A stretch of 64,000 nucleotides of DNA. Source: Bacteroidales bacterium (GTDB taxonomy: Bacteria > Bacteroidota > Bacteroidia > Bacteroidales > UBA1402). The notes beneath the pieces are model-generated. The model worked only from the letters and a program-made list of their open reading frames with translations. It was not told the DNA's origin and did not search any database. Both the position numbers and the translations under genes were made by a program. Location of the stretch: the NCBI GenBank assembly GCA_017380635.1, contig JAFODP010000004.1, positions 86,828 through 150,827 of the forward strand, written 5' to 3'. This document shows positions 28,375 through 38,836 of the stretch, in pieces; position 1 is the stretch's first letter, and each line of letters begins with the position of its first letter.

Positions 28375-28407
28375 GAAACAAAATCAGTCGCCGACTGATT
28401 TTGTTTT
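28375..28407. terminator. Perfect palindromic hairpin terminating the accessory-island operon
   Basis: AAACAAAATCAGTCG (28376-28390) / CGACTGATTTTGTTT (28392-28406), flanked by A/T runs on both sides. It lies 80 nt downstream of the last island gene on the minus strand. Confidence 0.55.
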
Positions 28408-28488
28408 CCCGAGGCGCATCCTATATTGCGAGGAGCACAGCGACGAGAAATAAAGGATACACATCGTAAAGGAGTTACCACACTACTC

Positions 28489-29445
28489 TTAATTTGCACA
28501 CTCAATTGTTGATATCACTTCATTTCTATATTGTTTCATTGCAGGAAATTTTAGGAAAAATATCCTTTCCTCAAAAATGCCATTATCTTTTAGATACTCC
28601 GAAACAATGGTCTCAACTAGACAATTTGTAGCAATCTTACGAGATGCCTCTGGCAAGCACTTTATGTATCTGCAAAGACTTTCAGCCGATTGAGGCTTAC
28701 TATACAAAACTCGATACACTCGAGTACTAATTTCAGTAGCTTGTCTCGTAAAACCTGATAGCCAATAGTGTATTAACTCAACATATTGCTCGTCAAAATA
28801 GAACGGAGCATCCGATTTCAATGTCTTTAGTACCGCATCAGATATCTGAGACTCATTTAACGTGGCGCAGCTATTAAGCATTCTTTTCAGTTTGTGCGAC
28901 AAGTTATTGAATTCTTCCTCGCTATAACTTACCTGCTGATCATCAAAAGGCTTTGATCTTTCGTAGATAGATTGAATAATATCCTTATATTTCTTTTCCA
29001 ATAGCGGAAATCTCACAAGAAATCCATCAAGGTCGTATCGATAATATGCACAATAGTGGCTGAAAATATAGAAACACAATTGCTCTTCTGCTTCTTTGCG
29101 TTTATCCTCCGACAAGGCATCTATGCGTTTTATCGCCTCATCTAATTTTTGCGGATAAAATAAAAATATATTGTACATATAGAGGGATATACCTTCGCTA
29201 CACTCTTCTGAAACATTGCAAAGGTAGTGGATAAGCAACTTATAGTCTTCATCAGTGCTTAATATACTGTCATTGGGCGGCACACAAGAATACGCTAACA
29301 TATCTGCCACTGCATACGAGAGTTCTTCTCCTCGCAGGGCTTGGATGGTTTGCTCGGATTTAATACGACCGTCTGAGCTATCGTGAAAGTCCATGTTACC
29401 AGCTCCAATAGCTGCTAAAATTGTAAAAATCAAAGAAATGATCAT
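28489..29445 (-). CDS. Hypothetical 318-aa helical protein with an internal duplication (possible orphan immunity protein)
   Basis: AT-rich gene with an N-terminal hydrophobic segment MIISLIFTILAAIGAG. The two halves align by eye: DEDYKLLIHYLCNVSEE...FLVRFPLLEKKYKDIIQSI against DEQYVELIHYWLSGFTR...FFLKFPAMKQYRNEVISTI. I recognise no family. Confidence 0.6.
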   Translation of the reverse strand: MIISLIFTILAAIGAGNMDFHDSSDGRIKSEQTIQALRGEELSYAVADMLAYSCVPPNDSILSTDEDYKLLIHYLCNVSEECSEGISLYMYNIFLFYPQKLDEAIKRIDALSEDKRKEAEEQLCFYIFSHYCAYYRYDLDGFLVRFPLLEKKYKDIIQSIYERSKPFDDQQVSYSEEEFNNLSHKLKRMLNSCATLNESQISDAVLKTLKSDAPFYFDEQYVELIHYWLSGFTRQATEISTRVYRVLYSKPQSAESLCRYIKCLPEASRKIATNCLVETIVSEYLKDNGIFEERIFFLKFPAMKQYRNEVISTIECAN

Positions 29446-29501
29446 AATTGTAGCTGTTTTTATATTTTTCTCTACTCAAGCTCAAAAAAGGTTCATCTGT
29501 T

Positions 29502-35790: not shown

Positions 35791-35791
35791 A

Positions 35792-38746
35792 TTATTCCTC
35801 ATGTGGGTGTTTATAATTGTAATCAAAAGTCTTTATGATACCTTGTGCATCACGGATGACAGATAGTTTGCCATCGTCGTGATAATCGTAATAGAGCGTA
35901 TAGCCGTTCTCGTTGGTGATGGCCGTGGGACCGAACAAGGGGCGATACACATAGGTGGTCAACAATACATTCTTATTGGCAAGAGCCGTGCGCAAGTTGA
36001 CAAGATGATTTCCCATTTCGGATGAATCATCACAGCTTTCTATGCTCGTCAGCAGCGACTCCAATCCCCAGGCCGTTCTCAGGCGTTCATGACTCACTCC
36101 CTTTATTTGTGCCACGGGATATTGTGAATGATAACCCCACACCAGCGCCACCGTATCTGTGGCATTCTCCACCAGCGTCAGGATATTACCCTTATTGTCG
36201 TATCGGGCAAAATGTATATCCTCTTCCAAGGGATTTCCTTGCAGGGCGCTTCTTATGGATTTCGGATAAAACCAATCCGTCTCTCCATTATACACATAAT
36301 CAATGGCTTTTGTCGACAACAGATTGTCGTTGCAATAATATCTCTCGCCCACCACCTGATCCAGCATTCCATAATCGTTTGCCATCGAATCGTACAAATC
36401 ATCCGTCCTATCTATGGTATATTCGTAGTCCGTCCTATATACCTTACCATCACTGCCTGTCCGTGTGACGCTCTTGGGCTTGAGATTTCTATACAGACTG
36501 TCGTAGGTGAAACTTTCCACACTGCTCACTCCCGTCACATTGTCCGTCACCGTCCTGCTCTTCAACAAACACACCGACGAGTGAGCTAGGACTTGGGCAT
36601 GGGGTATGGCAGTACTGTCTACAACATATGAACTCAATGGAAGAATCTCTCCAAATTCAGTTCCAATCGTATAAATACACATAACCTCGTTACCCACTTC
36701 GTATGATTTAACGCTCTTCGATTCGTATTCATAAGATTCTGTCTGCAACAAAAGACCTGTCTTGTCATAAATCTTTTTGGATTCAAGATAAGGACGAGCA
36801 TATCCCTCATCATTTAAATTGCTTGGAGATAAAAGAGGATTATCTAACTTTAACGTTCCAATATACTTAACAAAATTCCCAGGGAGATATTCATAACAAA
36901 TAGTTCCCTCATTATCAACCTCTCTAATGGTTTCATAAAACACAGGGCTACCGCTATTATCACTCAAAGGTAATATTGGATCTGCCAAACACATTGTTCT
37001 TTCACATAAAATAGTTGAGTCTAAAATTGTTATATAATGATGATAAACCTTGTATCTCATCATAAACTCTGGTGGATCGTGTGTAACATACCCCCAATCA
37101 TAATAATAATTCTTTATCCTTGATTTTCCATCATTTGCAGAAGAACTGATACGCTTTATCCGCAAGCCGCCAACGGTATGTCCATTTATGACATTGGGCT
37201 CGTAAACAAATCCCGTTGATCCTCCCGTGGGAAATGTAATGGATTTCAGAACACCCGTCTTTGCATATTCAAAATTCGGATTCTTATTTGCTGTATTTTC
37301 CAGCCAATGCTCTTTAGAAGAAAAGTGATGACCATTATCTACAAGGGAATCGATAATCGGTCTTATGACATCTACGGATACATAATTCTGGCTCTCTGTT
37401 CCATTCCAATATCCCCAATAGTCCGTACGAGACCTATGTCTTGCCACATTTCCATCCAATCCCTTTTCTTTCAGGTAATACGAAGGAAGCTGTCGGGATG
37501 TATCATAAGCGAATGAATACAGCCCTTCCGTTGATACCGAAAGTCCACGCAAGAGCATTCTGTAATTATCCAAATCTCGCCCCAAGTAATAATCATTGTC
37601 GAAGGAAATCGTCTTTACTATCTCACCTTGAAAATCTCTAACCTCCATCTTTGTCAATCGAATGGGGAGATGATCTCTTCGTTCCGTCGAATAAGAAAAA
37701 TCTATTCGATTTCCATTCCACCTTATACATTTTAAGATAGGTATGTTATATAGATACTGTATTGATTTTTTCTGTGGTTTTGCTTTATACCCCTCACTTA
37801 AACTTATCATTAGATCATCTGGATCAAGTTCTTCTTCATAATCCTCATCGGGATAAATATTCACAATTGTTGCTTCCCTAAAATACCCCAATTCCATTGA
37901 TTCTGATAATGCATAGGCATAATGATAATAGCACTTTTTATCATATTCAAAAGTTATATTACCATTCGGGGTTTGAATCTCAGAAAGATACCACGATGAT
38001 ATTTCTGTTAAGGTTTCCTCGTTAGTCGGGCCCACATATTCTTTATCCTGAAAGATGTAAACTATCCCATCAGTGTCCAAGATATAAAATTCGCTATTTT
38101 CACCCCTTGACACATAAATATATAGTGGATCTGCATTAAGCGTAACAAAACTGTTATCCTTATGCGAGTATCGAAGAACACCCGACTTATTGCCGAATTT
38201 ATAACAATACCTGTCCGATTGAACATCATATTTGGAATTGGTATTGAAGGTTTCTTCTGCAATTGCCCCTTGATTGATAATAGTCAATAATCTATCAAAA
38301 TTTAAACCTCCGGAACTTTGCATCTGTTCTATCAACGTATGCAGTTCCGCATAAGAATGATACAAAGTGTCTCTATCTGTCGCTTGACTTAATCTCAAAT
38401 CGGGCGCGCCATGTATGGTTCGCGTTACAACACCGCCTGCATTCAGCACCCAGCCAAGCCCCACCGTCGAGGCCACATCGTCCACACGTATTCCCGATGC
38501 ATGATACGAAATGGATATCGGCAAATGATAATCGCCCAACTGAATGTCGTACAAGGGAATTTCAATCTTTGGAACACCTGTCGTGTGTCCTACCGGATAT
38601 TCTCCGTAACGCGCCAAAGCCGCCGCCTCAGGCGAAGGAGGGACGACCCGATTCAATATCGATATGCTCGATGCTTCTTCCTGCGAATGTAGCAAAGGAC
38701 AAACCGACAAAAGCAACAAACTGATAATCAGAATTCGTTTCATCAT
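35792..38746 (-). CDS. Secreted 984-aa protein with an SpvB/TcB-like N-terminal motif and C-terminal YD repeats
   Basis: Signal peptide MMKRILIISLLLLSVCPLLHSQ. The stretch YGEYPVGHTTGVPKIEIPLYDIQLGDYHLPISISYHASGIRVDDVASTVGLGWVLNAGGVVTRTIHGAPD follows the SpvB/TcaC N-terminal pattern (G..IP...LP.SLSY.S....G.GW.L....I.R...G.PD). YD-type repeats sit near the C-terminus (DGKVYRTDYEY, YDYHDDGKLSVIRDAQG). Assignment rests on pattern only. Confidence 0.65.
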   Translation of the reverse strand: MMKRILIISLLLLSVCPLLHSQEEASSISILNRVVPPSPEAAALARYGEYPVGHTTGVPKIEIPLYDIQLGDYHLPISISYHASGIRVDDVASTVGLGWVLNAGGVVTRTIHGAPDLRLSQATDRDTLYHSYAELHTLIEQMQSSGGLNFDRLLTIINQGAIAEETFNTNSKYDVQSDRYCYKFGNKSGVLRYSHKDNSFVTLNADPLYIYVSRGENSEFYILDTDGIVYIFQDKEYVGPTNEETLTEISSWYLSEIQTPNGNITFEYDKKCYYHYAYALSESMELGYFREATIVNIYPDEDYEEELDPDDLMISLSEGYKAKPQKKSIQYLYNIPILKCIRWNGNRIDFSYSTERRDHLPIRLTKMEVRDFQGEIVKTISFDNDYYLGRDLDNYRMLLRGLSVSTEGLYSFAYDTSRQLPSYYLKEKGLDGNVARHRSRTDYWGYWNGTESQNYVSVDVIRPIIDSLVDNGHHFSSKEHWLENTANKNPNFEYAKTGVLKSITFPTGGSTGFVYEPNVINGHTVGGLRIKRISSSANDGKSRIKNYYYDWGYVTHDPPEFMMRYKVYHHYITILDSTILCERTMCLADPILPLSDNSGSPVFYETIREVDNEGTICYEYLPGNFVKYIGTLKLDNPLLSPSNLNDEGYARPYLESKKIYDKTGLLLQTESYEYESKSVKSYEVGNEVMCIYTIGTEFGEILPLSSYVVDSTAIPHAQVLAHSSVCLLKSRTVTDNVTGVSSVESFTYDSLYRNLKPKSVTRTGSDGKVYRTDYEYTIDRTDDLYDSMANDYGMLDQVVGERYYCNDNLLSTKAIDYVYNGETDWFYPKSIRSALQGNPLEEDIHFARYDNKGNILTLVENATDTVALVWGYHSQYPVAQIKGVSHERLRTAWGLESLLTSIESCDDSSEMGNHLVNLRTALANKNVLLTTYVYRPLFGPTAITNENGYTLYYDYHDDGKLSVIRDAQGIIKTFDYNYKHPHEE

Positions 38747-38836
38747 ATTTTAAGAATTTTTCACAAAGATAGAAACCTTATTTATTTTTTTCCCTCCTGC
38801 ACAATAAAAACGCCATTTTGCAGTTTATATAATCCC

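Follow-up and report, generated by a model that had tools for sequence, protein, structure and literature searches.

A candidate two-piece Rhs/YD cocoon of Bacteroidota with Sec signals, immunity genes and a type IX-tagged accessory protein

An understanding of Rhs cocoons exists only for those carried by the spike of a type VI secretion system (T6SS) or by the TcA injector of the toxin complexes (Tc). Sec-dependent YD toxins also exist, one of them being WapA of Bacillus subtilis. The bacterial teneurin-like proteins (TLPs) are likewise Sec-dependent YD/Rhs toxins (PMC13018210). Zhang et al. (2012; PMC3482391) described a "TcdB/TcaC" trafficking class, bacteroidetes included, which combines a signal peptide, SpvB, an integrin-like propeller and RHS. 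Steele and Moran (2021; PMC8125069) found that Apibacter has Rhs proteins with SpvB/TcdB N-termini instead of PAAR, and that the rhs genes adjoin genes with a type-A sorting domain of the T9SS (type IX secretion system); an association with the T9SS was proposed, which in their words "warrants further investigation". Another group from Bacteroidetes, the TANFOR toxins, is Sec-exported and has no T9SS C-terminal domain (CTD), and its neighbourhoods are enriched in CTD-bearing T9SS substrates, giving rise to a similar and untested T9SS hypothesis (PMC7073777). The cassette described here belongs with these systems. It lies in a 64,000-nucleotide stretch of a Bacteroidales bacterium (GenBank assembly GCA_017380635.1, contig JAFODP010000004.1, positions 86,828 to 150,827), which is called the window below and whose numbering is used throughout.

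The cassette consists of seven open reading frames (ORFs), all on the minus strand, which occupy 28489-38746 and are lettered A to G in the order of transcription. It is judged reasonably probable that they form one transcription unit encoding a Sec-exported, two-piece polymorphic Rhs/YD cocoon together with immunity genes and a T9SS-tagged accessory protein. A and B are separated by 1 nucleotide (nt) when B is given its shorter start, B and C by 9 nt, and C and D overlap by 4 nt (ATGA); the downstream gaps D/E, E/F and F/G measure 20, 30 and 56 nt. A box on the minus strand at 38764..38771, TATCTTTG, stands 17 nt upstream of the start codon of A; it matches the Bacteroides -7 promoter consensus TAnnTTTG and may serve as the promoter. 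At the other end, a perfect hairpin on the minus strand (28376-28406; 14-15 bp stem, 1-3 nt loop) begins 83 nt past the stop codon of G. It is the best terminator-like site of the region and the probable terminator of the unit. For comparison, 80 related loci were collected from species-representative genomes, all Bacteroidota, and counts of loci refer to these unless stated otherwise; the closest of them, L001, comes from a Bacteroidales metagenome-assembled genome from roe-deer rectum. No experimental characterisation of such cassettes was found in the literature.

A, B, C and F start with hydrophobic stretches whose last residue is small and precedes a Gln (LHS/Q, SLA/Q, FIA/Q and VCA/Q, the slash marking the presumed cut). 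The Sec signals proposed in a sequence-only reading of this DNA for the three large proteins, A, B and C, could thus be read directly from their N-termini, and in A and C they span residues 1-21 and 1-22, respectively. By a hydrophobicity heuristic, signal-like N-termini occur throughout the family, in 65 of 72 A proteins, 33 of 36 split C proteins and all 10 of 10 proteins in which A and C are fused. Scans with Pfam and NCBIfam found no PAAR, VgrG, Hcp, LXG or TPS domain in the seven cassette proteins and no T6SS family in the 20 other window ORFs scanned, in agreement with the same reading.

Protein A (35792-38746, minus strand; 984 amino acids, aa) opens with its Sec signal and an N-terminal region resembling SpvB/TcB, continues with a beta/alpha region in the middle and closes with YD repeats at the C-terminus. 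Its AlphaFold2 (AF2) model, with a predicted local distance difference test score (pLDDT) of 87.4 and a predicted template modelling score (pTM) of 0.86, matched Rhs, Tc and teneurin shells in Foldseek with E values of 1e-17 to 1e-10. The top global matches were to YenB (5kis_A/4igl_C; E 1e-17) with query-normalised template modelling scores (TMq) of 0.45-0.46; other TcB matches were TcdB2-TccC3 (TMq 0.36-0.43) and TcdB1 (TMq 0.41), whereas the shells of T6SS Rhs proteins reached a TMq of only 0.1-0.2. The relationship to TcB suggested from sequence was therefore recovered by structure search, with YenB and TcdB2 as the best global matches. The SpvB N-domain (6p0x_A) also matched the model, with a target-normalised score (TMt) of 0.42.

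Family scans of the cassette gave RHS_repeat and YD_repeat_2x matches, the latter at residues 940-974 of A; RHS_repeat was found in 30 of 48 homologues of A and Pfam SpvB in 5 of the 48. The SpvB/TcB-like character claimed for the N-terminus of A accordingly stands on the model and on these five homologues, and not on A itself, which has no Pfam match, SpvB included. Neither A nor any of the 48 homologues matched the TcdB_toxin_midN/midC or FG-GAP propeller families at E<=0.01. The protein is about 460 aa shorter than YenB/TcB, and in region 440-650 of its model there are some 11 strands and 4 helices, fewer than a propeller of six blades would need. When A was compared with the Protein Data Bank (PDB) by sequence, both as a single sequence and as a profile of 79 sequences, it found the generic YD repeats of T6SS Rhs proteins and no TcB, so its TcB kinship is visible at the fold level only. 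Judged by its modelled fold, the computation shows A to be the TcB-like half of a shell without a detectable TcA-docking propeller. Some A-family proteins of Sphingobacteriia and Chitinophagia (P0084, P0088, P0091, P0097 and P0110) carry an extra DUF5977 after the YD repeats.

Protein C (31351-34662, minus strand; 1103 aa) would provide the other half. Behind its signal lie a DUF6443 (residues 37-151; 34210-34554; E 8e-14), for which no literature was found, a YD shell (residues 152-806), an Rhs core (residues 807-888; 31999-32244; Rhs_assc_core TIGR03696, E 9e-17) and a toxin domain of 215 aa (residues 889-1103; 31354-31998), all on the minus strand. The core aligns with the "...SSDP...LLDPDG" stretch of TccC3 and with YenC2, both catalytic residues, Asp860 and Asp884, being kept; in this part the proposal that C is TcC-like holds good. 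Cleavage of the toxin is predicted just before residue 889.

That A and C belong to one shell is argued from natural fusions. In the related loci, a DUF6443-Rhs gene almost always follows A, either directly or with one small gene between, and in about 10 of the 80 (L002, L003, L006, L012, L042 and others) A and C are fused as a single protein of about 2000 aa. By this Rosetta-stone argument, the two proteins would form the two halves of one shell. Segatella copri is among the carriers of an intact fused A-C gene (HDE04, L042). In another strain of this species, F3-48 (L038, 9827-19339), the fused gene lies in three pieces, interrupted by two ORFs on the opposite strand (428 and 479 aa) that are probably insertion elements.

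The C-terminal domain of C, residues 889-1103, defines a toxin family with 288 homologues detected, mostly orphan core-plus-toxin ORFs of 220-370 aa from Prevotella, Weeksellaceae, Flavobacteriaceae, Saprospiraceae and others. Its conserved motifs are RPDYDGFVT..EGI.WAK.HP.AL.NPTPDN, TVYALGRV, ATDYDWN.GGG..R and HGFKTYYYG. The family has no Pfam match and no relative by sequence in the PDB, where a profile of the toxin domain matched only through its Rhs core portion. The gene that overlaps C, D (30827-31354, minus strand; 175 aa), is the cognate immunity candidate. It has a positively charged N-terminus and an N-terminal transmembrane helix (~24-44), and its domain is predicted to face the periplasm. 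E (30306-30806, minus strand; 166 aa) is a tandem paralogue with 48% aa identity to D (the DNA repeats are 76-79% identical), likewise with a positive N-terminus and an N-terminal transmembrane helix.

The assignment of D and E comes from an orphan homologue of the toxin (51% identical) at locus L083, whose stop codon is overlapped by a gene for a 177-aa protein homologous to both (28% identity and E 2e-14 to D; 34% identity and E 3e-21 to E). Since a homologue of D and E accompanies an orphan copy of the same toxin, they are taken to be the cognate immunity family. The surrounding locus (L083, 1-12036) contains a DUF6443-Rhs gene, an orphan toxin/immunity array with a Toxin-JAB1 and the homologue of the window toxin, and a second Rhs gene. 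The last two genes of the cassette are less easily placed. F (29502-30275, minus strand; 257 aa) is secreted and has weak MORN_2-like repeats, with a Pfam MORN_2 match below cutoff (E 7e-4, 19.9 bits); no homologue was found in the related loci except for one weak match, and F is possibly an orphan immunity protein. G (28489-29445, minus strand; 318 aa) had only sub-threshold matches in Pfam and NCBIfam scans and no homologue in the related loci. Of the "immunity array" read from the sequence, then, D and E are assigned to the cognate immunity family and F and G are left without an assignment. With a YD shell, an Rhs core, a variable toxin and a linked immunity gene, the cassette qualifies as a genuine polymorphic toxin system of the Rhs type.

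The link to the T9SS comes through protein B (34672-35790, minus strand), which has 372 aa when started from the ATG at 35790 and 384 aa when started from the TTG at 35826. It carries its Sec signal (ending SLA/Q), a beta-rich N-domain and a C-terminal domain at about 34675-34944, and in the AF2 model (pLDDT 84.8) the C-terminal part is a 7-strand sandwich. A Foldseek search of this model against the PDB gave no significant global match and none for the N-domain. B belongs to a large family, with 738 clusters at E<=1e-30, and 38 of 125 diverse full-length representatives matched Por_Secre_tail (PF18962), with a best E of 5e-13. Two homologues found in related loci, L008 and L014, pass the Pfam model with 35.7 and 31.3 bits, respectively, and the tail of the 384-aa B aligns with theirs column by column, with its PNP motif lost. 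Moreover, when these two were excluded, a profile of the B-family tail still aligned with unrelated CTDs in hhalign at 95.9% probability (E 5e-9). By family-level homology, the computation therefore shows the tail of B to be a diverged T9SS type-A sorting domain; the CTD-like tail first noticed in the sequence is upheld by the family, by L008 and L014, by hhalign and by the model, although not by any Pfam or NCBIfam match in B itself.

Homologues of B sit upstream of, between or downstream of A and C, and two neighbourhood look-ups that started from B homologues both arrived at B-A-C triads. Across the 80 loci, CTD or B genes made up 15 of 65 ORFs in accessory positions versus 7 of 751 other ORFs (Fisher p 7e-13), and curated models recognised a CTD in 6 of 58 adjacent ORFs. 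In Chryseobacterium the accessory gene encodes a CTD protein of about 550 aa, and in single loci, such as that of Draconibacterium (L065), other CTD proteins take the accessory position. A single third component for the whole phylum was considered and rejected: in hhalign, the B family shared no N-domain with the ~484-aa, ~334-aa or Chryseobacterium ~550-aa families, the similarities being limited to signal peptides or the CTD. At another locus (L086; 7345-7851 and 9001-16821), a gldH-like gene for a lipoprotein (GldH_lipo), which is gliding/T9SS-associated, has a B-A-C triad some 1.1 kb downstream of it, perhaps by chance.

Other accessory genes were seen beside A and C. A secreted protein of about 484 aa with no known domain (L022, 8543-9988, and 13 other loci of Chitinophagaceae, Cyclobacteriaceae and others) is encoded directly upstream of A in most of its 14 loci, the position held by B in Bacteroidales, and has no detectable homology to B. 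In Chitinophagaceae, a gene for about 175 aa stands between A and C (L022, 13596-14057; L024, 5705-6238; L050, 13562-14089; L076, 4995-5534) and, in one locus, just upstream of A instead (L037, 935-1471). These small genes gave weak Redoxin matches, and glutathione-peroxidase matches occurred among the scanned accessory ORFs.

In the mechanism proposed, A and C would be exported separately through Sec and cut by signal peptidase I, after which they would assemble in the periplasm around the toxin. The toxin would be severed after the DPNG motif by the Rhs aspartyl autoprotease core (Asp860/Asp884). D would sit in the inner membrane, anchored so that its domain lies in the periplasm, an orientation that makes the envelope of rival bacterial cells the probable target of the toxin. 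The T9SS would bring B to the surface of the cell or of vesicles, where B would most likely tether, escort or target the cocoon. The hypothesis of a T9SS-assisted surface cocoon is strengthened by the present data for the accessory protein only, and not for A or C. More specifically, B and its analogues may couple a periplasm-assembled cocoon physically to the type IX pathway, by piggy-back export or by surface or vesicle anchoring, a proposal judged less likely than not.

Several observations count against this mechanism. A recognisable CTD or B gene is adjacent in only 14 of the 80 loci; further lineages carry accessory genes that are unrelated and in which no CTD is detectable, such as the ~484-aa family of 14 loci, and the Fisher test above treats related lineages as independent samples. 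A and C themselves carry no T9SS sorting domain in Pfam or NCBIfam. Neither the 384-aa B nor its isolated tail matched PF18962 or TIGR04183 in these databases, even with the tail searched at E<=10, and a tail that fails the CTD thresholds and has lost its PNP may no longer function. Finally, the activity of the toxin and the topology of the immunity protein are themselves predictions made from sequence.

In the main rival explanation, the cocoon would be T9SS-independent, resident in the periplasm and released in outer-membrane vesicles or by lysis, with B no more than a co-encoded surface adhesin or receptor-binding factor or a decayed remnant; fusion of such vesicles would then deliver the cocoon into the target periplasm. 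Sec signals without a CTD on A and C, the 66 of 80 loci that have no adjacent CTD gene and the degenerate CTD of the 384-aa B are all as this explanation would have them; so is the predicted periplasmic immunity domain, which fits a toxin that need not enter the cytoplasm, and lysis-type systems are known to release Tc toxins (PMC13018210). It accounts poorly, however, for the strong enrichment of CTD genes beside A and C in several unrelated accessory families and for the consistent occurrence of B homologues in B-A-C triads, and the cassette contains no holin, endolysin or spanin gene. Release by vesicles or lysis is regarded as somewhat unlikely. Still less probable is that B, instead of being secreted, works in the periplasm as a chaperone of the cocoon or helps to assemble it, its Ig (immunoglobulin)-like tail being purely structural. 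The failure of the tail at CTD thresholds would suit such a role, as would its fold, for which the only matches are Ig-like sandwiches of a generic kind (DUF3244, GH2 Ig domains), and the variable position of B upstream of, between or downstream of its partners. Yet about 30% of the diverse B family still score as Por_Secre_tail, and the members that do so keep the PNP motif, which makes a purely structural tail quite unlikely.

Two further explanations look to injection machines encoded elsewhere. Most commonly, Rhs toxins serve as effectors of a T6SS, and T6SSiii occurs in Bacteroidales (PMC4714493); the cassette might encode an effector whose T6SS lies in another part of the genome. Cleavable Sec signals, however, are absent from T6SS effectors and present here on all three large proteins and family-wide; no PAAR, VgrG, Hcp or adaptor was found in the cassette, in the 20 other window ORFs or in the recurrent families of the 58 adjacent ORFs, and T6SS Rhs shells were poor global matches to the A model, so delivery by a T6SS is highly improbable. 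An anti-eukaryotic, Tc-like toxin directed at insect or host cells, with its TcA-like injector elsewhere or replaced by a host-cell-binding protein, has in its favour that the closest structural matches are insecticidal TcB subunits and that the source is a gut metagenome. This explanation is nevertheless very unlikely: no TcA-docking propeller is detectable in the family (0 of 48), no TcA-type gene recurs beside the 80 loci, and the conserved overlapping immunity gene and the orphan toxin/immunity array are hallmarks of interbacterial toxins.

On one side of the cassette lies tagaturonate reductase (uxaB; 26718-28202), and on the other PorP, PorK, PorL and PorM from 38837, followed by GldN; the minus-strand block of seven ORFs, its junctions, its hairpin and these flanks are all as they were first described. 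The back-to-back placement with porP-porKLMN had been offered as evidence for a T9SS role, and here the earlier reading is not supported. None of the 80 related loci, L001 (93-96% identical) included, has PorP, PorK, PorL, PorM or PorN within 10 kb, and a functional reading of the adjacency was rejected on these grounds. L001 shares exactly window 38771-32027, at 95.5% nt identity, and is unrelated outside it. The shared module runs from the TATCTTTG box upstream of A to about residue 878 of C, just before the core ends, and it is followed in L001 by a different toxin tail and different downstream genes; upstream, the neighbour is an OmpA-family gene and not porP. The A-B-C shell is thus a mobile module with classic Rhs C-terminal displacement, and the view of the region as an accessory module is borne out. 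With the module at another site in L001 and no Por genes near any of the related cassettes, the position beside porPKLMN is best read as a coincidence of insertion.

No tRNA was found in the window, no direct repeats were found flanking the cassette, and no recombinase was found within it. At a further locus (L087, 6038-7168, minus strand), a tyrosine recombinase (Phage_integrase) is encoded directly upstream of a B-A-C triad, a possible mobility route. The G+C content (GC) of the region is a mosaic, with 0.34-0.38 at 28-31.5 kb and 36.5-38.5 kb versus about 0.48-0.50 elsewhere. Gene A is divided by it, the 5' half having a GC of 0.37-0.39 (window 36500-38500) and the 3' half, together with B and the C shell, 0.47-0.53 (window 32000-36000). 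Because the whole A-B-C stretch is 95% identical to L001, this mosaic must be older than the split of the two genomes. Elsewhere in the window, a PorZ-like protein (52632-55010, minus strand; PorZ_N_b_propeller, E 1.9e-42) adds another component of the T9SS at a distance of about 14 kb from porPKLMN, and an ORF of 1780 aa (15151-20493, plus strand) had no Pfam or NCBIfam match at E<=1e-3.

The family to which the cassette belongs is found throughout Bacteroidota, Segatella copri and other abundant gut taxa being among its carriers. The A family has at least 582 species-level matches, as far as seen in Bacteroidota only. No named genome of Bacteroides or Phocaeicola sensu stricto was among the top A matches, which is suggestive only. 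Within this family the window cassette is an ordinary member whose porPKLMN neighbourhood should not be over-read. Its shell proteins are exported by Sec, with neither a spike nor an injector, and the recurring partner with a T9SS sorting domain offers a concrete and testable handle on how the cocoon leaves the producer and enters the target. If the T9SS-coupled cocoon is true, the T9SS would act as a weapon between bacteria, bringing an encapsulated toxin to its target with no injector involved.

Among known systems, the closest in architecture are the BC subunits of Tc toxins, such as TcdB2-TccC3 of Photorhabdus and YenB-YenC2 of Yersinia entomophaga. Both are shells built from two genes, in which the B subunit has an SpvB-like N-terminus and YD repeats and the C subunit has YD repeats, an Rhs core with two Asp residues and a variable C-terminal toxin, to a total of about 2000 aa. 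Even the fusions have a parallel, since A-C fusions occur naturally here and have been engineered for Tc. Unlike Tc, the cassette has no TcA injector and no detectable TcB propeller, two features by which Tc is defined, and A is shorter by the ~460 aa noted above; here, both halves bear Sec signals, a DUF6443 stands at the A/C junction, and there is a dedicated immunity gene, which suggests that the target is probably bacterial rather than insect. Neither the window ORFs that were scanned nor the gene families recurring beside the 80 loci included a TcA, so that the lack of a TcA-like injector pointed out earlier is confirmed over both.

The Rhs effectors of the T6SS (RhsA, Tse15, Tse5, RhsP and Tre23-Rhs) share with the cassette a YD cocoon, core autoproteolysis, a C-terminal toxin, downstream immunity and orphan cassettes. 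They differ in being single polypeptides of about 1400 aa that lack a Sec signal and have PAAR- or VgrG-binding N-termini. Two known Sec-dependent groups, WapA and the TLPs, were overlooked in the statement that the usual routes of Rhs toxin delivery do not apply here. Like the cassette, both groups export a YD-shell toxin by signal peptide, have an immunity protein and lack a machine dedicated to injection. Their toxins are single polypeptides that bear cell-wall, lipoprotein or adhesion domains, and none has a T9SS-tagged partner. The TLPs also feature FN-plug, NHL and TIP domains (PMC13018210). The TANFOR toxins, for their part, lack an Rhs shell, and the trafficking domain at their N-terminus is a different one.

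The cassette also stands close to two published descriptions that take in Bacteroidota. Of the parts that define the "TcdB/TcaC" class (PMC3482391), the cassette has the signal peptide, the SpvB-like fold and RHS, and the propeller was not detected. With the SpvB/TcdB-type Rhs proteins of Apibacter, it shares the phylum, the domain logic with a polymorphic toxin tip and a neighbouring sorting-domain gene. The descriptions of both are bioinformatic, from domain calls; in the present cassette, the shell is split over two exported proteins and the partner has a degenerate sorting domain. The class itself was known before, and a link to the T9SS has already been proposed in print for the sister lineage Apibacter.

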